From Pedosphaera sp. (GTDB taxonomy: Bacteria; Verrucomicrobiota; Verrucomicrobiia; Limisphaerales; SIBH01): DNA of 52,977 nucleotides. Below, one piece after another: positions 30,816 through 39,022 of the stretch. Positions within the stretch are counted from its first letter, which is position 1, and the number at the start of each line of letters is the position of its first letter. Position numbers and translations under genes: made by a program. The notes below the pieces were generated by a model. The model was not told the DNA's origin and did not search any database. It saw only the letters and a program-made list of their open reading frames with translations. The stretch spans positions 1 to 52,977 of the forward strand of contig JANOQV010000165.1 in NCBI GenBank assembly GCA_031414955.1, read 5' to 3'.

Positions 30816-31904
30816 TCATTTGTTCCCCTTCTTCAGCACCTCCGCCATGGCCCAGCCCAGAGCGTTGCCGACTTCCATGAAGGTCTCGGCGTTCCGATTG
30901 TAGTGATAGCCCTGATTTTTCGGGGAAACCTCAACCTCCCGCCAGAAATCGCGGACGTCCACGCACTTCACGTTGCCGGCGAACTCCGGATGCTTCCTGG
31001 CGTCATTCAGCGCAAGCTGCGCTTCGGCGATCTGCAGCCCGAGGCCCGAGCGCCCGGGGTTCCCGCAGCCCGTGGCCAGCACAAACGGCGCGTTCGGCGC
31101 GTTGAAATCTTTTCGCAGCATCTTGATCAACTGCGCCAAGTTCTGTTCGTAGCGGCTGGCGTGGACCGGATTTTGATCCTTGTTCCCCTGCCACCAGACG
31201 AACCCGGTGACCTCGTATTTTTCGGCTCCAGGGTAATATTTACCGACCTCACTCAAGACCTTTTTGGCGTTGGCGGTGTCGTCGTCGTTTTGCTTGCCGG
31301 CGTACCACGCGACCTCCTTCTTGGGCTGACCTTCGATCCACGAATCGGGTGTGTCCTTGTATCCGGCGTAGGTCTTGCCCTCGACCGTGTACCGCGCGCT
31401 GCCGGGCGGAAGAAGATCCCAGCCCAAGCTGCGGTTGCCGATACAGGATTTAAGAATCAGCACCGAATCCTCCAGCACCTGGCCCATAATGTGACCGAAC
31501 TGCAACTCCGGCCCGATGGTCTTGCCTTTGACCGTCAGTCAGTCCTTTTGCACCAACTGCATGTGGCCGCGGTTTTGCATGACAAAGACGTGCCGAACAT
31601 CACTGCGCGCAGTCCACCTGCCGGCCTCATCCGACAAGTGGGGATACCGCTTTTCCTTCTTCGTCAGATACTCCAGCGTGCCATGAGTCGTCTCCGGCCC
31701 AACGTCTCCCATCCCGACCATGTTCGACTGCCCCAGCAGGATGAACACCTTGACCGGCTTGTTCGTGTCCGCTGCCTTGGCCTCCGGCCTCGGCAATGGG
31801 TGTTTCGGATTCGTATCGAACTTCTCCGCCGCCGAGGCGCTGGCGGCGCCCAGGACCGCGGCCGCCAGCAGCGAGACCACGGCGAATAGCGATTGGTTGT
31901 GCAT
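30816..31904 (-). pseudogene. sialate O-acetylesterase/SASA-family SGNH esterase interrupted by an in-frame TGA at 31539-31541
   Basis: Signal peptide; VFILLGQSNMVG; then QKD*LTVKGKTIGPELQFG continues in the same frame into GFVWWQG and YHYN. Confidence 0.85.
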
Positions 31905-31929: not shown

Positions 31930-32025
31930 TTACTTGGAAAGGGTCGGGCGCGCCAGTTCGGTGAAGCGGTCGGTCTGCCGCTGCCAGGCTTGGGCCAGTT
32001 CCTTCACCTTCTCCGGCAGCTTCGC
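31930..32025 (-). pseudogene. C-terminal remnant of a sulfatase-like gene
   Basis: AKLPEKVKELAQAWQRQTDRFTELARPTLSK* resembles the sulfatase terminal helix (compare ATRPEIVERLTKSL in 41521..43119); upstream sequence is the repeat array. Confidence 0.5.
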
Positions 32026-32033
32026 GATGCGGC

Positions 32034-32193
32034 AAAACCTAATGAAATTCCGGCACTCAGCGCGGCGGGGCGACGAAAGGGCGGCGCTGGGTGTGGGCGG
32101 AGCGGAGTCCTCAAGCCGGAAGGGGTGGCGGCAAACAGGCGGCGGCACGCGCGGGTTTCACGGCCGGGGGCGGCAAAACTTGCCGGCTTGAGG
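32034..32193. repeat. repeat A copy 1 (unknown ~160-bp G-rich structured repeat)
   Basis: Core cagcgcggcggggcgacgaa...gcggagtcctcaagccggaa...ggtggcggcaaacaggcggcgg..acgcgcgggtttcacggccggg shared with 34010 and 35040. Confidence 0.92.
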
Positions 32194-32233
32194 GAGGGAT
32201 GGGCCAGCGTGACGAGTTTGGCACGCCGCATTC

Positions 32234-32425
32234 TCAGCGCTGAAGGCGCGGTATTCGACAGCCCAGGGCAACGCCCTGGGTTGGCGATGCACAAGAATTC
32301 TCCAGCCCTTGAAAGGGCGGAACAACGGCGCGCTGAGTGACGCCTCTTCAGGGCTGGTTTGGTTTTGCGGACTCGCACCCAGGGCTTTGCCCTGGGCTGA
32401 CGAATGACGGCCCTTCGGGTCTGAA
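32234..32425. repeat. REP-doublet/MITE-like palindromic element B copy 1
   Basis: Nested hairpins cccagggcaacgccctggg, gcccttgaaagggc, cccagggctttgccctgggc and cccttcggg; second copy at 34863. Confidence 0.85.
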
Positions 32426-32434
32426 TCTGGGTTC

Positions 32435-32463
32435 TTGTTCCCGTTGAGGCGCCGCGTTACCGT
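32435..32463 (+). promoter_or_regulatory. putative leaderless promoter of TA module 1
   Basis: TTGTTC-17 nt-TACCGT, 6 nt before ATG 32470. Confidence 0.5.
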
Positions 32464-32469
32464 CCCGCC

Positions 32470-32757
32470 ATGAAGACGCTCACGGTTCAACTCGCGAAAG
32501 AGCAGTTCAGCCGCATCCTCACCGAAGCGAATCGCGGAGATGTGATTGTCCTCACGGATGGAGATCGGCGAATGGAGTTGGAAGCGACTCCACCCCACGG
32601 CGGTGCGCTTCCGTTCGATTTGGACGAGGACAGCACGGAACTGGAAGCAGAACTGCTCAAAGCCGTCAAAGGGCCGCACGCCCCCTTCTCCGAGGCGGAA
32701 CTGCGCGGCATCGCCGACCGCGCCTTGCAAGAGCACCGGACGAAGCGCGCCGAATGA
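32470..32757 (+). CDS. antitoxin with Phd/YefM-like N-terminal domain
   Basis: MKTLTVQLAKEQFSRILTEANRGDVIVLT; acidic C-terminal half; ATGA overlap with the toxin. Confidence 0.78.
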   Translation: MKTLTVQLAKEQFSRILTEANRGDVIVLTDGDRRMELEATPPHGGALPFDLDEDSTELEAELLKAVKGPHAPFSEAELRGIADRALQEHRTKRAE

Positions 32758-33089
32758 GCCTGGCGCTGCATCGTTCGGATTACTTCAACGAAGACTTCGA
32801 CCTGCAATACCGGTGGTATCTGCGCGAGGCGGGCGAGGAAATCGCCGAACGGTATTTTGCCGCCGTGCTGGCGAGCGTGCGCGAACTGGCGCGGCATCCC
32901 GGACTCGGACGTCAGCGGAAATTCCGGGACGAGGCGCTCCAGGGCTTGCGTTCTTTTCGCGTGGATCATCCGTTCCATCGCCACCTCATCTTCTATCGCG
33001 CCACGGAGAACGAACTGTTCGCCGAGCGAGTGATGCACGGCACGCGCGATTTGCCCCGGCGATTGCGCGAGGTGCCCGGTTCGGAATGA
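32754..33089 (+). CDS. RelE/ParE-family toxin
   Basis: YLREAG..IAERY, LARHPGLGR, LRSFRV..FHRHLIFYR and RVMHGTRDL. Confidence 0.88.
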   Translation: MSLALHRSDYFNEDFDLQYRWYLREAGEEIAERYFAAVLASVRELARHPGLGRQRKFRDEALQGLRSFRVDHPFHRHLIFYRATENELFAERVMHGTRDLPRRLREVPGSE

Positions 33090-33215
33090 GCCTCGTCACC
33101 TCGTCTGCTACGGCTTCCCCGGCTGCACCACTGAGATCACAAACTTCTCCGCGCTCAGGTATTGCTTCGTGAGGCGGCGGATGTCGTCGAGGGTCACGGA
33201 CTCGTAGCGCGCGTC
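33088..33215 (-). repeat. diverged duplicate of the M16 peptidase 3' end (35 codons + stop) plus GTAG-REP
   Basis: 120/128 nt identical to 36982..37109 by hand alignment, no indels; encodes DARYESVTLDDIRRLTKQYLSAEKFVISVVQPGKP*. Confidence 0.95.
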
Positions 33216-33224
33216 ATTTGGAAG

Positions 33225-33252
33225 TTGTTTCGGCGGAGTGGGCGATTACCTT
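33225..33252 (+). promoter_or_regulatory. putative leaderless promoter of TA module 2
   Basis: TTGTTT-16 nt-TACCTT, 7 nt before ATG 33260. Confidence 0.45.
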
Positions 33253-33259
33253 ACCGGCC

Positions 33260-33499
33260 ATGAGCGTGCTCGAATTGACGGATGAGCAGGTGATTTCGCT
33301 GGTGCGGCAACTCCCAACTGAGCGGAAGCGCAGCGCGCTGTTCGTGCTGGCCGGGGAAACCCAGGCGCGACGCGATGAACGCCTTCGTTTCGGCGAGGCG
33401 CAGTTGCGGCAGCTTTGCACGGCGCGCGGGCTGGATTGGGACCGGCTCTCGGAAGATGAGTGCGAAGATTTCGTGAACCGCCTGCTGCACGAGAAATAG
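33260..33499 (+). CDS. putative antitoxin (partner of the PIN toxin)
   Basis: 79-aa ORF MSVLELTDEQVISLVRQLP...LSEDECEDFVNRLLHEK directly upstream of, and overlapping, the PIN frame. Confidence 0.7.
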   Translation: MSVLELTDEQVISLVRQLPTERKRSALFVLAGETQARRDERLRFGEAQLRQLCTARGLDWDRLSEDECEDFVNRLLHEK

Positions 33500-33923
33500 C
33501 GCGGCTCTCACCGTCGTCTTCGATACGAACATCCTTTTCTCCGCCACCGGCTGGCGAGGCAATCCCTTTCAATGCGTCGAGCATGCCCGCACCGGGCGAA
33601 TCAATGCCGTGACTTGCCCTGAGTTAATGCAGGAACTCGCCGAGAAACTGGACACCAAGTTGAAGTTCTCTCCCGATCAAACCACCGAGACACTGGCTGA
33701 TTACTTGAGCTTTCATCGGTTGGTCAGCATTCCAAAAACACTCAATGCCGTCCCGCGCGACCCGGACGATAATGCCGTGCTGGAGTGCGCGCTGGAAGCT
33801 GGAGCCAGCCACATCGTCACGGGCGACGATGATTTGCTCGTGTTGAAGGAGTTTCGTGGAATCCAGATTGTCCGTGCGAGTGAGTTCCTCCGAATCTTCA
33901 CAGCGCAGCTCGGTTCAGAGTGA
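33489..33923 (+). CDS. PIN-family toxin (TIGR00305/PIN_3-like) lacking a canonical start; ACG at 33489
   Basis: Frame reads TVVFDTNILFSA...RDPDDNAVLECA...IVTGDDDLL. No ATG/GTG/TTG lies between the in-frame stop at 33474 and the DTN motif. Confidence 0.8.
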   Translation, partial: TRNSAALTVVFDTNILFSATGWRGNPFQCVEHARTGRINAVTCPELMQELAEKLDTKLKFSPDQTTETLADYLSFHRLVSIPKTLNAVPRDPDDNAVLECALEAGASHIVTGDDDLLVLKEFRGIQIVRASEFLRIFTAQLGSE

Positions 33924-34009
33924 GCCTTTCTACTGCGGCTGCTACTTTCCCGGCTGCACCACCGGGATCACGAACTTCTCCTGCTCAGGTACGGCTTCGT
34001 GATACGGCG
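33922..34009 (-). repeat. second, more degenerate duplicate of the M16 3' end plus GTAG-REP
   Basis: gagcctttctactgcggctgctactttcccggctgcaccaccgggatcacgaacttctcctgctcaggtacggcttcgtgatacggcg aligns with 36982..37073, with a 3-nt and a 1-nt gap. Confidence 0.9.
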
Positions 34010-34168
34010 AAACCCAACGGGATTTTGACACTCAGCGCGGCGGGGCGACGAAGGGGCGGCGCTGGGTGGGGAGGAGCGGAGTCCTCAAGCCGGAAAGGGT
34101 GGCGGCAAACAGGCGGCGGGACGCGCGGGTTTCACGGCCGGGCGGCAATCCTGGCCGGGTTGAGGAAT
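34010..34168. repeat. repeat A copy 2
   Basis: Aligns with 32034..32193 and 35040..35200; directly abuts the M16-tail copy. Confidence 0.92.
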
Positions 34169-34210
34169 TAAATGCCGGTGTGCGGGCGATGATTGCCTAA
34201 ACACGCTGCG

Positions 34211-34239
34211 TTGCATTGCCGGTCCAGACGGAGTATCAA
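34211..34239 (+). promoter_or_regulatory. putative leaderless promoter of TA module 3
   Basis: TTGCAT-17 nt-TATCAA, 6 nt before ATG 34246. Confidence 0.45.
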
Positions 34240-34245
34240 GGACGC

Positions 34246-34476
34246 ATGACTTTCACGCGCATCACCAGCGACCCAAAGCGGATGAATGGGCAGCCCTGCA
34301 TCCGAAACTTGCGGCTGACGGTGCGCCGCGTGGTGGAAGCGGTCGCCACCTACCCAAACCGCGACGAGCTGAAGCGCGAATATCCTGAGTTGCAGGAGGA
34401 AGACATTCGCGAAGCGCTGGCCTACGCGGCGGCGAACCTGGATGACAAAGTGATGGAACTGGCGGTCGGCCCGTGA
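34246..34476 (+). CDS. DUF433-family antitoxin
   Basis: RITSDPKRMNGQPCIRNLRLTV...YPELQEEDIREALAYAA. Confidence 0.92.
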   Translation: MTFTRITSDPKRMNGQPCIRNLRLTVRRVVEAVATYPNRDELKREYPELQEEDIREALAYAAANLDDKVMELAVGP

Positions 34477-34482
34477 TGGCGG

Positions 34483-34847
34483 ATGAAACTGCTGCTCGAC
34501 CAAGGCACACCCGCAGCGCGGCCCCGCTTTTATGCCGCGCCGGATTCGATGCGGTTCACACCGGCGACATCGGAATGGCGGCGGCGGGCGACGAAGTAAT
34601 TCTCCAGCGAGCCGTCGTTGAAGATCGGGTTGTCGTCACCCTGGACGCGGACTTTCACGCCCTGCTCGCGCACTCGGTCGCCACGAGACCGTCCGTGATT
34701 CGCGTTCGCATCGAAGGCTTGCGCGCGGAAGAATTTGCCAGCCTCCTGCCACGAGTGATCGGGCAATGCCGAAGCGATCTGGAAAGCGGTGCGATGGTTT
34801 CGGTGCAAGAAGGTCGCATTCGTGTGCGCCGACTACCGATGGCGTGA
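34483..34847 (+). pseudogene. DUF5615/VapC45-like PIN toxin with a 1-nt frameshift near 34510
   Basis: MKLLLDQGTP from ATG 34483; the rest (RSAAPLL..AGFDAVH..DEVIL..RVVVTLDADF..PSVIRVR) is in the -1 frame. Confidence 0.82.
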
Positions 34848-34862
34848 GGGATGTGACCGCGT

Positions 34863-35042
34863 TCAGCGCTGAAGGCGCGTCATTCGACAGCCCTGGGTGG
34901 GCGATCTTCAGAAGCTCCCCAGCCCTGAAAGGGCGGAACAGCGGCGCGAGGAGTGACGCCCCTTCAGGGCTAATTGGGTTTGGCGAATTCTCACCCAGGG
35001 CTGTGCCCTGGGCTGACGAATGACGGCCCTTCGGGCCTGAAA
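34863..35042. repeat. REP-doublet/MITE-like element B copy 2
   Basis: Same element as 32234..32425, with a 12-nt deletion (agggcaacgccc) between gccc microrepeats. Confidence 0.85.
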
Positions 35043-35200
35043 CCTCGGCGCGATTCCGGCACCCAGCGCGGCGGGGCGACGAAGGGGCGGCGCGGGGTGG
35101 GGGCGGAGCGGAGTCCTCAAGCCGGAAGGGGTGGCGGCAAACAGGCGGCGGGACGCGCGGGTTTCACGGCCGGGCGGCAAGCCTGGCCGGGGTGAGGAAT
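35040..35200. repeat. repeat A copy 3
   Basis: Aligns with copies 1 and 2; begins exactly where element B copy 2 ends. Confidence 0.92.
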
Positions 35201-35362
35201 GAATTGGTCACCGTGCTCAGGGTGGCTCGGACCGGGCAGAACTGGACTGATGGATGAGGTAATGTTTGAGTGACGCGAATGCTTGTTTTGAGATTCTCAA
35301 ACCGGAAATTGCGGAAACAGTCCGGTTGCATTAAAAATTGGCGCTGTTAGGAGAATATCTGA

Positions 35363-36343
35363 ATGCACGAGAATCAACTCCAATTATCAGAGGTGCGCAC
35401 GAATCAAGCGCGCACGCTTCGAGTGTTTGACTACACCATTACCTTGGCTCCGGGAGTTGTACGGTATCTTGGAGTCGCCAATTTTTTGGACGCAGACGTC
35501 GAACGCTCGGTTGACCTCGTGCGCAGTTCTTCGGCTCAACCTAAGATTCAGATCCCGCGAGACGAATTTGTTGTCGAGACGGATCAATTCAACCCAGGTT
35601 TGAACCTGGAAGAGATTGACGAATTGTTTCCAAACATCGGCTGGGAAGAGAGGCTACGGATACACCATGCACTTGGCAGGGCTTACAAAGAACACGGGAT
35701 GCCATCGTGCGTCTATGGTTGTTTTCATCGCGAACTCAAGTTGACAGAACTAACCACCGCCGCCTGTCTTGACGCGTGGGTGAAAAAAGCGTGGCACGAT
35801 AATGATCTGACGGAATCCTTCACTGGTGTATCGGACTACATGGTGCTGACATCCAATGCCTACAGTTCACGCTGTGTCTTTCGGAAAACTCACCTCATCG
35901 TGCATCGGCTCGGAGAACTGGAGCGAGAAGCCGAGGGAAAAAAAAGACGAGAACAAGAAGCAATTGCTTCAAGAGCCACACTTGGAGAATTGGAGCGCCT
36001 CAGAAAAAGTAGTTTTTCCACGTTTGTTTACCTGATGGAAGATTTGCGGAATGGGCATTTCAAGATTGGGCGGAGCGCCACACCAGGAAAGCGCGAACGG
36101 ACTCTGCAATCAGAAGTGCCGCAGATCGTTTTGCGTTTCTCGATACCCGCCAATGTCGATCACGAGCGAGAATTGCACGAGCGTTTCGACGATAAACGAC
36201 AGCGAGGAGAATGGTTTGCCCTCTCGCCTGACGACCTGCTCTGGCTCATGTCCTTCCTGAAGCAACACGGGGACGGGGCGCGCGTCGCTGTCGATCACCA
36301 GTGGTTCACCAATATATTTTTTAACGGTGCCGGACAACCTTGA
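35363..36343 (+). CDS. protein with C-terminal GIY-YIG nuclease (T5orf172/MUG113-like) domain
   Basis: FVYLMED..GHFKIGRS..PGKRERTLQ..ERELHERF..KRQRGEWF; N-terminal ~210 aa not recognised; low GC. Confidence 0.82.
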   Translation: MHENQLQLSEVRTNQARTLRVFDYTITLAPGVVRYLGVANFLDADVERSVDLVRSSSAQPKIQIPRDEFVVETDQFNPGLNLEEIDELFPNIGWEERLRIHHALGRAYKEHGMPSCVYGCFHRELKLTELTTAACLDAWVKKAWHDNDLTESFTGVSDYMVLTSNAYSSRCVFRKTHLIVHRLGELEREAEGKKRREQEAIASRATLGELERLRKSSFSTFVYLMEDLRNGHFKIGRSATPGKRERTLQSEVPQIVLRFSIPANVDHERELHERFDDKRQRGEWFALSPDDLLWLMSFLKQHGDGARVAVDHQWFTNIFFNGAGQP

Positions 36344-36349
36344 CTGGTC

Positions 36350-36973
36350 TCAGTCCCCCGCTGGCTCCTTGCCGTTTTGGATCATTTCAACTCCCAGTAG
36401 GATGCGAAACTCGCGCTGCAACTTCTGAAGGATCGGCGGGCATTTTTTGGAGAAAGCATCCCAACTTTTCTGCCAAGCATCGTCCCTTGATTCGTAATTT
36501 TTCGGCAGTTGTCGCATTTCAGCCATGTTCATCAGGTTGTGGAACTTGTACGTTTCTCGCCAAAGTTCCTGAACAAACGCTTCGATTTCGTTCGCTAGAT
36601 CTTCGCTCAGATAAATTTTCTTCTTCTCAAACGAAGTAACAAAGCTCTGCGTTGCAGACAGCGCAGCGCGGGCGTTTTCCATACGAGCGGTTTCAAATTC
36701 TTCGCCCTGAAATGGCGTGATGACCTTGTTCACCGCACGAAATGCATCGACCAAATCTCCGTGCATAGCTTCAACCATTTCCGCGCGCTTCTCGTGGAGC
36801 AACTTGAAGCGGACCTCATGCTCAACTCCGGTCTGCCGAAGAAACTGTCTGAATCTTTCAAGCTGTTTGGCGTCCCGGTGTGCGATTGCAGATTTGAGAT
36901 ACCAACCGACTGCACCAACCAAGACCGCATTGCCTGTGAGGGTTGCTACTACATCTGGCCAATTGAAGTTCAT
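36350..36973 (-). CDS. hypothetical protein (N-terminal TM anchor, helical body)
   Basis: 207-aa ORF with N-terminal hydrophobic helix; RFKLLHEKRAE..LQREFRILLG; low GC; starts 8 nt after the REP downstream of M16. Confidence 0.7.
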   Translation of the reverse strand: MNFNWPDVVATLTGNAVLVGAVGWYLKSAIAHRDAKQLERFRQFLRQTGVEHEVRFKLLHEKRAEMVEAMHGDLVDAFRAVNKVITPFQGEEFETARMENARAALSATQSFVTSFEKKKIYLSEDLANEIEAFVQELWRETYKFHNLMNMAEMRQLPKNYESRDDAWQKSWDAFSKKCPPILQKLQREFRILLGVEMIQNGKEPAGD

Positions 36974-36981
36974 ACTGATCA

Positions 36982-37005
36982 GAGCCTTGTCACCTCGGCT
37001 GCTAC
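36982..37005 (-). repeat. GTAG-capped REP overlapping the M16 stop codon
   Basis: Minus strand GTAGC-AGCC-GAGGTGACAA-GGCT-C; the TAG of GTAG is the stop. Variants at 33088-33111 and 33922-33945. Confidence 0.75.
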
Positions 37006-38291
37006 GGCTTCCCCGGCTGCACCACCGAGATCACGAACTTCTCCTCGCTCAGGTATTTCTTCGTGATGCGGCGGATGTCTTCGAGGGTCACGGACTCGTA
37101 GCGCGCGTCGTCCTTGTCGCTGCGGTCGTAGCCGAGTCCGTAGAGTTCATCGAGCGCGGCGGCCATGGCGTAGCCGCCCAAATCCTGCCGGGCGATTTTC
37201 TTCTGGCCCACCACCTTGGCCTTGGCCCGGGTGAGCTCCTCGGCGGTCAGGCCGTCGGCGCGCAGGGCGGCGGCTTCCTTGAGCATCTCGGTTTCGACTT
37301 GCGCCACCTTCTCCGGCTCGGTGCCGGTGTAGAAGGCGAAGTAGCCGGGCGTGAGTCCGAGAAAATTCTGCGCGCCCACGTAGTAGGCCAACCCGAGCTT
37401 CTCGCGGATGCGCGTGAAGAGCCGCGAGCCAAGATCGCTGAGGGATTCCTGCAACAGCTCCAGCGCGTAACGGTCCTCGCTGAAGATGTCCGCGCCGGGA
37501 TAGCCGATGAGCAGCACGGCCTGCTTCTTGTCGCGCGTGTCGCTGACACGCTGGGTGGCGGTGAGCGCGGGCGGCACGGTGGCTTCGGGCAGCAACGAGT
37601 GGTTCTTCCACGCGCCGAACTTCTGCGTGATGGCCTTGCGCACGTCTTCCGCCTTTACGTCGCCGAAGATGGCGATGACGCAATTGGTCGGCGCGAACAG
37701 TCCCTCGTAGAACTTCTGCGCATCGGCGACCTGGAGCTTGGAAATGTTTTCCTCCGTGCCTTGGCTGTCGAGTCCGTAGCCCTGGTTGCCGAAGAGCGCG
37801 CGGCGCATGAGGCGTCCGCCGCTCTGGAGCAACTGGTCGCGTTGCGCGCGAATGGCGGAGAGCTGCATCTCTCGCTCGCGCTCGAAGGCGTCCTTCGGAA
37901 ACGCCGGATGCAGCAGTACGTCGGCGATGATGTTCAACCCGGTCGTGAAGTCCTCGGTCATCACCTCGGCGTTCACGCCGAAACTGTTGTTGCCGCCGTA
38001 GCTGTCGATGGAGCCGCCCATCGATTCCATTTCGCTGGCGATTTGCTCGGCGCTCCGCGTCTTGGTGCCTTGCAAAAGCATCTTGGCCATGAGCAGGGTC
38101 ACGCCGTTGTTCTCGGGCGTCTCGGCCAGCACGCCGCCGCGCAGCACGGTGCGAATCTCCACGAAGGGCAGGCGATGGTCTTCCTTCACCAGCAGGCGCA
38201 GGCCGTTGGCGAGTTCGAACTTTTGAATCGGCTGCGGTTGAACTGGTTTGAGTTCAGCAGTCGCGGTCGGAACGGCGTTGGCGATTTCCAT
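37002..38291 (-). CDS. M16 (pitrilysin/insulinase) family protein, non-catalytic subunit type
   Basis: LANGLRLLVKEDHRLP, LLQGTKTRSA and SRLFTRIREKLGLAY (R/Y pair); HXXEH replaced by LLMAK. Confidence 0.9.
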   Translation of the reverse strand: MEIANAVPTATAELKPVQPQPIQKFELANGLRLLVKEDHRLPFVEIRTVLRGGVLAETPENNGVTLLMAKMLLQGTKTRSAEQIASEMESMGGSIDSYGGNNSFGVNAEVMTEDFTTGLNIIADVLLHPAFPKDAFEREREMQLSAIRAQRDQLLQSGGRLMRRALFGNQGYGLDSQGTEENISKLQVADAQKFYEGLFAPTNCVIAIFGDVKAEDVRKAITQKFGAWKNHSLLPEATVPPALTATQRVSDTRDKKQAVLLIGYPGADIFSEDRYALELLQESLSDLGSRLFTRIREKLGLAYYVGAQNFLGLTPGYFAFYTGTEPEKVAQVETEMLKEAAALRADGLTAEELTRAKAKVVGQKKIARQDLGGYAMAAALDELYGLGYDRSDKDDARYESVTLEDIRRITKKYLSEEKFVISVVQPGKP

Positions 38292-38524: not shown

Positions 38525-38599
38525 GGCGCGTTCGTCTATCGGCTAGGACATGGCCCTCTCAAGGCCGAAAGACGGGTTCGATTCCCGTACGCGCTACCA
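38525..38599 (+). tRNA. tRNA-Glu (CTC)
   Basis: GGCGCGT acceptor stem, TGGCC-CTCTCAA-GGCCG anticodon arm, GGTTCGATTCC T arm, encoded CCA. Confidence 0.96.
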
Positions 38600-38650
38600 A
38601 TGGCCAAATAGTCAAAATGTTCGGGATCTGAGTACGAATTGTTCTACGCC

Positions 38651-39022
38651 ATGCTTCCATTTCAGATTATTTTCAATCCTACGAGTGCGGCGGAGCTGTC
38701 CCGCATGCCCAAAGATCTGCAATTGGATATCCTGGGCGAGTTCAGCGGCATGCCCCTCCAAGTAATCAGCACGGAACTTGAGCGATACGGCAAACTTGAG
38801 CGGGAAGGAAAGACCCTGCACCGATTTCGTATTGGGGATTACCGTATTTATTTTGAGAGGCACGAATTGGGCCTGCTCGTCCATCGAGTTCTAAGCAAGA
38901 ACTCACTCAAGGATTTTCTTTTTCGGTCCAGTTTGCCTTTGGGTGAAGACGAAGTTCTACAGCAGAATCCAAAGTTTTGGGATCTGATCGAATCTTCCAA
39001 GCAGTCGGCTTCGCGCCCCTGA
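38651..39022 (+). CDS. RelE/StbE-like protein with no adjacent antitoxin
   Basis: FQIIFNPTSAAELSRMP...GKL...LHRFRIGDYRIYFE...VHRV. Confidence 0.72.
   Translation: MLPFQIIFNPTSAAELSRMPKDLQLDILGEFSGMPLQVISTELERYGKLEREGKTLHRFRIGDYRIYFERHELGLLVHRVLSKNSLKDFLFRSSLPLGEDEVLQQNPKFWDLIESSKQSASRP

Follow-up and report, generated by a model that had tools for sequence, protein, structure and literature searches.

The window analysed here is the entire contig C165 (JANOQV010000165.1; 52,977 nucleotides) of the draft genome G000, which comes from Pedosphaera sp., an uncultured member of the Verrucomicrobia. Behind a gene of the M16 peptidase family it carries an array in which displaced copies of the 3' end of that gene alternate with toxin-antitoxin (TA) pairs and other cargo. 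The array exemplifies a process found throughout the lineage, in which TA and defence blocks accumulate behind the ends of conserved genes without an integrase. Gene tails are repeated on either side of the cargo, foreign live tails stand beside displaced tails of the resident type, the cargo and the point at which copies start vary, the duplications are biased toward 3' ends, and the cargo is free of recombinases. The best reading of these observations, which is held to be probable rather than certain, is an integrase-free, homology-anchored displacement of gene tails by host recombination. In what follows, G denotes genomes (G001-G011 are congeners of G000), L loci, X1-X4 metagenome runs and C contigs of G000; positions in anchor genes are counted back from the end of the stop codon, e.g., -108.

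The live tail, taken as the last coding bases of the M16 gene plus a GTAG-type repetitive extragenic palindromic (REP) sequence on its stop codon (36982-37109), recurs twice in the window (Table 1), as reported in an initial annotation made from the sequence alone: the copy at 33088-33215 (hereafter 33.1) is identical at 120/128 positions with no gap, and the degenerate copy at 33922-34009 (33.9) is 83.7% identical in a gapped alignment. No further long copy of the M16 tail and REP was found elsewhere in G000. Over its 108 coding bases the 33.1 copy differs from the live gene by 2 synonymous and 4 non-synonymous changes; four of the six are the bases of relatives' live alleles, and two are private. 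The counts agree with those first given, but the argument drawn from them, that the copy had not decayed neutrally, is not carried by a 2:4 ratio, which is indistinguishable from neutral (p = 0.46). A third copy, suspected from a 14-base trace at 32020-32033, matches at 13/14 positions and lies at the same junction with a repeat, A, as does the 33.9 copy; a BLAST piece at 32002-32193 aligns with 33975-34165 at 86%. Judged from this junction the trace is probably real, though weak taken alone, as the 14-mer occurs 20 times in the 6.5-Mb genome at up to one mismatch. The gene-end remnant to which the trace is fused seemed to resemble the end of a sulfatase, a candidate set aside when no alignment was obtained.

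Among relatives, neither the cargo nor the number of tail copies is fixed. A second M16 tail is present in 5 of 11 congeners: in G008, G009 and G005, partially at a contig end in G011, and on another contig in G003. It is also present in 2 of 10 metagenome loci (L047, L049), some of the other loci repeating genomes already counted. The G007 site is empty, and the G001 contig ends within repeat A. The DNA after the M16 stop codon varies by genome and encodes ParE with an addiction-module antitoxin, a PIN pair, AbiU2, HNH or unknown open reading frames (ORFs). In G009, the displaced tail adjoins the gene that directly follows M16 in G007; therefore, 2.3 kb have been inserted at the G009 gene end. 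Outside the genus, M16 tail copies are rarer, not absent: among 80 further loci, the 74 with enough downstream DNA contain a tail copy in six cases (three among the closest loci, L160-L168, and three among distant ones) and a middle copy in none. A strictly genus-limited pattern had been considered and was ruled out when DNA self-comparison gave the three cases at distant loci. In neighbourhoods from other genera, 3/203 genes have a tail copy, all of them M16 and too few for a rate, and a search with the 60-aa tail gave one match in nearly all of 301 genomes of the order, the known G009 copy being missed by that search.

The tails record an exchange of alleles. M16 tails form two clades (support 100/98; the bootstrap is not fully settled), and the tree exposes a conflict between gene bodies and gene ends: G008 and G009 have bodies of the G000 side and tails of the other clade, and the displaced copy of G008 clusters with G000. 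Compared with G000 in 50-base blocks, G008 is 88-98% identical up to -100 and 66% identical in the next block; its displaced copy is 91% identical to the G000 tail and 71% to its own live tail. The switch point, about 130-97 bases ahead of the last codon, overlaps the start of the copy. By these identities the M16 tail of G008 is swapped, a foreign tail being live and a resident-type copy displaced, which supports the initial proposal that an allelic tail comes in together with the cargo, takes the place of the gene end and shifts the former tail downstream. In seven M16 copies, there are 23 private changes in the 5' third, 18 in the middle third and 5 in the 3' third (23/193 versus 5/315, p = 2e-6; 13/133 versus 5/315, p = 2e-4, with the first 10 bases trimmed; coverage was counted by hand and the copies are not independent), a drop to be expected if crossovers have renewed the 3' part again and again, or if gene conversion has acted. 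The linkage of tail, REP and PIN seen at the 33.9 copy is also present in G001, G003, G004 and G005; in G001 this block is the end of the live gene, and in G005 it is found displaced. In G000, the segment 33216-37001 probably entered as a single block already holding the older 33.9 scar, displacing 33.1. Because the segment may have come as one block, the inner 33.9 copy is possibly older than the outer 33.1, which would explain why divergence is not ordered by distance from the gene, a caveat raised at the outset.

The initial annotation treated the array as a special, M16-anchored system. This is ruled out: the same scar stands behind 23-29 unrelated genes of G000. In a run with an independent aligner, a free downstream tail copy accompanies 23/3029 genes, versus 4, 2 and 2 at three inner positions; one paralogue filter was applied to all positions, and the paralogue matches were level at 14-22. 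A BLAST scan, which left out copies within long genes and repeat families, found a tail copy at most 12 kb downstream of 29/3295 called genes, versus 3 upstream and 2 and 1 for gene middles (tail versus middle, 29 versus 2 of 3295, p = 4e-7). Anchors include lepA, lysS, thrS, ispH, gcvP, glmS, asd, thiH, an rmuC-like gene and an aldehyde dehydrogenase gene. The 28 copies kept at 25 genes (four paralogue-like genes, with six rows, were dropped) have a median start of -108 and a median cargo of 1.24 kb, and 18 of them end within 12 bases of the stop codon. They differ from the live tails by 305 synonymous and 88 non-synonymous changes (neutral share 0.25), or by 153 and 57 when a row of poor alignment and two copies of lysS are set aside. 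Duplicated 5' heads (31 versus 12 in a rough scan, 12 versus 7 with better gene calls) are not claimed. At the 28 other loci, the cargo has a TA-family match in seven, methyltransferase or restriction genes in two and an AAA_14/DUF4143 gene in two. Over the genome the cargo is often a TA or restriction-modification block, and the REP is not required.

One of these sites is a two-sided hotspot: in G000:C83:1-11169 (L084, L085), lysS and thrS face each other over about 10 kb, and the gap holds displaced tails of both, a PIN pair and restriction-modification genes. In G000:C56:89977-104370 (L079), a 9.6-kb block lies between two convergent transporter genes, and the displaced tail of each is found on the block's far side.

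lysS and lepA extend the pattern beyond G000. Of the nine genus genomes with a lysS match, seven contain additional 3' pieces of the gene. Across the order (121 genomes searched, up to six candidates scored per genome), close lysS copies on one contig are present in 14 of the 99 genomes with a match, 11 of these 14 lying outside the genus; all 13 loci that were fetched confirm displaced copies, nine with a TA-family match. Identity to the common lysS allele is mostly 72-90% for the live tails of G000, G003 and G007 and 86-100% for their displaced copies, so that on sequence comparison the lysS tail, too, is swapped in these three genomes. Divergence starts about 640 bases before the stop codon, where a block that the genus shares at 92-100% identity comes to its end. 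Copy starts lie at -372 to -321 and at -78 (-372 to -39 overall), so the foreign tract extends about 270 bases further upstream than the longest copy. The lysS tail of G009 is 92-96% identical to tails of six other families, which suggests that lysS tails are exchanged across families. An extra lepA tail piece, starting at -61 to -41 and followed by PemK or RelE-like cargo, is present in five of the 11 genomes that have a lepA match. Immediately behind the lysS block that is 92-100% identical across the genus, some 640-550 bases before the stop codon (L122-L129), G007, G010, G006 and G004 have an in-frame insertion that differs in sequence and length, and G002 has a frame-broken one.

No recombinase was found in the cargo. 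None of the 47 window ORFs scanned belongs to a recombinase or transposase family, and tblastn with the genome's 8 tyrosine recombinases and 12 Y1 transposases gave no match in the window, which agrees with the first description of the array as integrase-free. No recombinase was found in 74 ORFs scanned at the 28 other G000 loci (the three longest loci were partly or not scanned), nor in the 129 cargo ORFs taken together, and tblastn with the 8 tyrosine recombinases gave no match in any bracket among 203 loci. These 8 recombinases are encoded elsewhere in G000, none on the contigs of the 29 loci; no serine recombinases were found in G000. The initial annotation advised a look elsewhere in the genome for a transposase of the REP-associated tyrosine (RAYT) type or a tyrosine recombinase; Y1 transposases and tyrosine recombinases are present, but the latter gave no match in a bracket and none of the former has a GTAG REP within 1.5 kb.

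In the favoured scheme, donor DNA from a related or distant Verrucomicrobia cell would comprise the last 40-400 bases of a conserved gene and the DNA downstream, with a cargo mostly of 0.5-2 kb, which may be a single gene, a restriction-modification pair or a TA pair together with its promoter. Recombination by the host, presumably through RecA, would cross the donor into the conserved block near the resident gene end; the gene would be kept whole with a donor tail, followed by the cargo, and the resident tail would be stranded behind the cargo as a direct repeat. First capture could proceed via one homologous and one illegitimate joint or via a re-ligated fragment, and later spread via tail-to-tail crossovers of an excised circle or of a linear piece with a tail on each side. 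At M16, a single-crossover, tail-to-tail route (a circle or a tail-bracketed piece) would be favoured because the switch and the copy start overlap and the 3' part looks renewed. At lysS, insertion-deletion from a linear donor would be favoured because the foreign tract begins at about -640, whereas the copies begin only at -372 or later. 3' ends would dominate because an exchange at any other part would damage the gene or its promoter, and TA and restriction-modification cargo would be enriched because addiction opposes loss between direct repeats, a hold that the broken toxins of the window indicate is not permanent. The common factor is homology at a conserved gene end, neither a site nor a cargo enzyme.

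Several observations weigh against this scheme. In a sample taken without the paralogue filter, tails and middles are level (12 versus 12 of 1008). No Ku was found, and ComEC and DprA, whose presence in G000 counts for the scheme, are also present in 10-11 of 14 control genomes. Both M16 tails in G000 are of one allele type: the swap is seen in relatives and would apply to G000 by extension. No circle, excision or tail-to-tail joint was seen among 15 of 38 joints listed, in contigs, which drop rare forms. Two of the three toxins in the window look inactivated, so addiction now holds neither block. Copy starts cluster gene by gene, as they also would with a site-specific enzyme: at about -141 to -125 in five M16 copies, at -61 to -41 in lepA and at about -89 to -74 at eight lysS loci. 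Finally, the PIN block ends at the identical base before four different neighbours, which random joints do not explain. The clustered starts and the base-exact PIN end keep alive an integrase acting in trans or a dedicated processing of ends.

One such possibility, unlikely yet deserving of weight, is that the blocks are remnants of site-specific integrative elements at gene ends, or the work of an integrase in trans: a phage or an integrative and conjugative element (ICE) restores the gene end and decays to a TA module, and newcomers pile onto the same attachment (att) site, as in the accretion of cis-mobilizable elements (CIMEs). TA modules outlast decayed elements, tyrosine recombinases are available in G000, and the clustered starts fit; tandem accretion at gene ends is described in passages of PMC5704250. 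About 25 different target specificities would be required, yet no bracket contains an integrase remnant and the contigs of the 29 loci carry none of the 8 recombinases, serine recombinases being unseen in G000. Starts at one gene differ by tens to hundreds of bases (M16 copies span -141 to -42, although erosion could blur a fixed site), the lysS foreign tract reaches well upstream of the longest copy, and inspection by eye gave no shared junction motif.

A second possibility, likewise doubtful, is that minimal gene-tail cassettes, each made of the end of a housekeeping gene and a TA or defence block with its own promoter, circulate as small circles in a lineage-wide pool of Limisphaerales-type Verrucomicrobia, even across families, their ends processed by a host or trans-acting enzyme. 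Such a pool would account for both the per-gene start clusters and the base-exact PIN end; if real, it would collect genes much as an integron does, with the ends of conserved genes serving as att sites.

REP-guided mobilisation, in which a Y1/RAYT transposase would cut at the GTAG REP or at the hairpins of an element, B, and move the adjoining TA block, is improbable. All three M16 tails carry the REP, the PIN block has a sharp end, and one of the Y1 transposases, on C90, is flanked by B palindromes (five palindrome matches). The GTAG family has 26 copies at up to three mismatches and 51 at up to five in G000, many as inverted pairs, but this REP lies at the stop codon of only 5/3295 genes, and none of the 12 Y1 genes has a GTAG REP within 1.5 kb. 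Displaced M16 copies of G008, G009, G011, L047 and L049 are without REP where sequence is available. Because several relatives' M16 tails lack it, the REP appears to travel with the 3' end of the PIN and ParE blocks and not with M16; the idea that tail and REP form a unit is ruled out. The Y1 gene and its Acido-Lenti-1-type palindromes occupy G000:C90:7100-9730, and the arrangement suggests that the Rfam 'sRNA' Acido-Lenti-1, tabulated in PMC2864571 for Acidobacteria and Lentisphaerae, is in fact a DNA repeat, similar to REPs, that belongs to a Y1/RAYT enzyme.

Local tandem duplication of the gene end, followed by cargo insertion and neutral decay, is quite improbable. Within G000 it would fit, both copies being nearest to the G000 live tail (94% and 85%) and 2 synonymous changes of 6 being compatible with neutral decay. 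It is already contradicted for G008 and lysS, where the copies are nearer to live alleles of other genomes than to their own, and across the genome there is a strong synonymous excess and the similarity stops at the stop codon. Still less can be said for homing, in which a cargo nuclease would cut a naive allele and repair would copy in tail and cargo: a T5orf172 protein is present in the window, and an HNH gene occupies the first position in L055 and also follows the aldehyde dehydrogenase gene, but most brackets consist of a TA pair of 0.5-0.9 kb without such a nuclease, and in the window the gene for the T5orf172 protein comes only second in its block, pointing towards the anchor.

The array is not an assembly artefact. 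In X1 and X2, two samples of one study that is possibly the source of G000, difference-free contigs cover 32390-33292, 33419-34061 and 35151-37346 (X2), 33186-33976 (X1) and 34119-35033 (X1/X2) at even depth (8-10.5 in X1, 12.7-16.6 in X2). Both tail copies are bridged by error-free contigs of the two runs; none of the three A repeats is bridged by the listed X1/X2 contig pieces. Therefore, a single type of chromosome carries the two tail copies along with the DNA next to them. A chimera of several strains, feared at the outset given a 6.55-Mb draft in 313 contigs (95.9% complete, 5.8% contaminated) and related strains within the runs, can be dismissed on these contigs and on the identical anatomy found again in independent genomes.

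The remaining features are collected in Table 1. The anchor belongs to the M16 family as first stated, but only as its C-terminal half; the N-half bearing HVLEH is a separate ORF on another contig (G000:C89:10599-11968). In G008 and L055, the C-half orthologue starts at the same point as a gene of its own, and it also begins as a separate gene in L054 and L038. The assignments T5orf172/MUG113, DUF433, DUF5615, PIN_3 and ParE are confirmed, as are the three copies of A and two of B, whereas the Phd match is below the cut-off. The first cargo gene, a 207-aa protein, has no Pfam match under E 0.04 and none in NCBIfam or PADLOC; the T5orf172/MUG113 domain of the second is presumably GIY-YIG-like. 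PADLOC matched 0/9 window proteins.

Table 1. Features of the M16 array in the window (positions in contig C165; "." marks an element without assigned strand)
Feature	Position	Strand	Remarks
M16 peptidase C-terminal (non-catalytic) half, anchor gene, 429 aa	37002..38291	-	PF05193/PF00675
Live tail: last 108 coding bases and GTAG-type REP	36982..37109	-	TAG of the REP (36982-37005) is the stop codon
Unknown-function protein, 207 aa, first cargo gene	36350..36973	-	Atlas look-alikes at 0.96-0.97, all hypothetical
326-aa protein with T5orf172/MUG113 domain	35363..36343	+	PF13455 E 6e-9, PF10544 E 2e-6
Repeat A3, structured, non-coding	35049..35205	+	No Rfam match
Element B2, inverted pair of Acido-Lenti-1 hairpins, REP-like	34863..35041	.	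RF01687 at 34865-34897, 34994-35038
DUF433 antitoxin and DUF5615 (PIN-like) toxin	34246..34847	+	Toxin frameshifted near 34510
Repeat A2	34010..34174	+	Abuts the start of the 33.9 tail copy directly
Displaced tail copy 33.9, starts at -72, degenerate	33922..34009	-	83.7% with gaps; REP overlaps PIN stop codon
Antitoxin (79 aa, no family) and PIN_3 toxin	33216..33923	+	Sharp block end at 33216
Displaced tail copy 33.1, starts at -108	33088..33215	-	120/128; REP overlaps ParE stop codon
Phd-like antitoxin and ParE toxin, apparently intact	32470..33089	+	Phd match weak, below cut-off
Element B1, inverted pair of Acido-Lenti-1 hairpins	32234..32425	.	RF01687 at 32236-32280, 32378-32422
Repeat A1	32034..32211	+	Folding z -3.4
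Third tail copy (probable), 14-base trace	32020..32033	-	Joined to the remnant of a gene end, 34 codons (31930-32034)

Two of the three toxins, PIN and DUF5615, look inactivated, and only ParE looks intact. The DUF5615 frame from the ATG at 34483 ends prematurely, and related strains in X3/X4 differ from the window by a one-base indel at 34509. The PIN start codon reads GCG in the window versus GTG in G001, G005 and G009, whose blocks are 85-90% identical and all end at 33215-33216. This block end (also in L032, L034 and L040) lies just upstream of a likely -35 box, and an X3 relative contig stops matching at 33215. The Phd/ParE block is 78% identical to blocks behind M16 in G006 and L053.

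Repeat A occurs three times in G000, always at this locus, and its + strand folds better than shuffled sequences (z -2.2 to -4.9); as a known RNA it has no match in Rfam. It is present in 3 of 14 family genomes (one marginal) and in L055, where it abuts the end of a convergent gene neighbouring M16 that we take to be icd-like; repeat A may be a scar from the opposite side of the same hotspot. The icd-like gene converges on M16 in the closest split-gene relatives (L055:8439-8597, L031:10724-11877); in G000 it lies on C275 without repeat A, and the far neighbour of the window has therefore been rearranged. Element B occurs twice at the locus and has weaker relatives elsewhere in G000. At the far end of the array, a SASA-family esterase (30816-31904, - strand) is split into two ORFs of 121 and 229 aa and is probably a broken gene. 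Upstream of M16, a tRNA-Glu is followed by a 127-aa ORF without family match (38525-39022), a possible second insertion spot; by its sequence, this ORF presumably resembles RelE-type toxins.

Many chromosomal TA, restriction-modification and defence genes lie far from mobility genes, and their route of arrival is an open question. Here, every arrival can be read from its scar, in which the alleles of donor and recipient stand next to each other, at more than 20 genes of this genome and at lysS across the order, and integrase-free acquisition becomes countable, datable and testable. A warning follows for marker genes: the 3' ends of lysS and lepA can be foreign in these lineages.

Displaced gene ends are known beside prophages, e.g., e14 in icd. 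Tandem accretion of CIMEs, ICEs and IMEs (elements that are integrative and mobilizable) at gene 3' ends, as described in passages of PMC5704250, resembles the array. Unlike the array, those elements depend on fixed attL/attR and on an integrase of their own; no such integrase was found here in the 96% complete draft, where action in trans is possible, the repeats vary in length, and the blocks are mostly of 0.5-2 kb. As regards integrons and clusters of attC sites lacking integrases (CALINs), this contig has no tyrosine recombinase, and its repeats are a coding gene end and a genome-wide REP. The REP/RAYT arrangement, a Y1 gene flanked by its cognate REP, is found for element B on C90 and not for the GTAG REP; it concerns passengers, not the tail mechanism. 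In a survey of small variable segments in three species, most flanking repeats are <30 bp according to passages of PMC2884548; the repeats here, at 40-370 bp, are longer.

Homology-facilitated illegitimate recombination was reportedly described originally in Streptococcus, Acinetobacter and Pseudomonas. Its hallmarks are RecA dependence, a linear donor and a microhomology of 3-10 bp at the joint; its combination of an anchor with a recipient deletion fits lysS, whereas at M16 the switch and the copy start overlap. Both this route and single crossover have precedents in experiments. In E. coli, trimmed, re-circularised fragments that enter by a single crossover leave gene-end duplications of 109-950 bp in 56/60 clones, a route 10x more frequent than homology-facilitated illegitimate recombination, according to passages of PMC3240628. 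These events share with the array one homologous anchor, inserts of about 1 kb and duplications of such lengths, and are RecA-dependent; unlike it, they are laboratory events of very low frequency with engineered donors. The same passages do not report a natural, genome-wide source of TA arrays behind housekeeping genes, and the open-access literature, taken without supplements, yielded no account of tails displaced throughout a genome behind housekeeping genes and accompanied by TA cargo.

The closest likeness is to arrays of polymorphic toxin genes, to which the cdiA arrays of contact-dependent inhibition (CDI) and the rhs loci belong. At rhs loci, C-terminal ends are displaced, with excision of circles and re-integration by homologous recombination proposed in passages that describe mafB arrays as similar (Jackson et al., 2009, PMC2935791); for the displacement of effector-immunity modules of the V. 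cholerae type VI secretion system (T6SS), homology-facilitated illegitimate recombination is proposed, again in passages of the source (Kirchberger et al., 2017, PMC5361080). As in rhs and T6SS arrays, the resident 3' end is pushed aside by an incoming one and survives downstream of it (here at M16 in G008 and at lysS in G000, G003 and G007), the displaced fragments vary in length, and no integrase is found. Unlike in rhs, CDI and T6SS arrays, the anchors are ordinary conserved genes (the M16 half, lepA, lysS, thrS); because they are not toxin genes, the array is not a member of that class. Whereas displacement at rhs and T6SS loci brings a new toxin tip, the new tail here encodes a near-identical protein end, and the gain is the hitch-hiking TA or restriction-modification block, repeated at more than 20 unrelated genes in one genome. 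The displacement model of rhs is thereby extended from toxin genes to ordinary genes.

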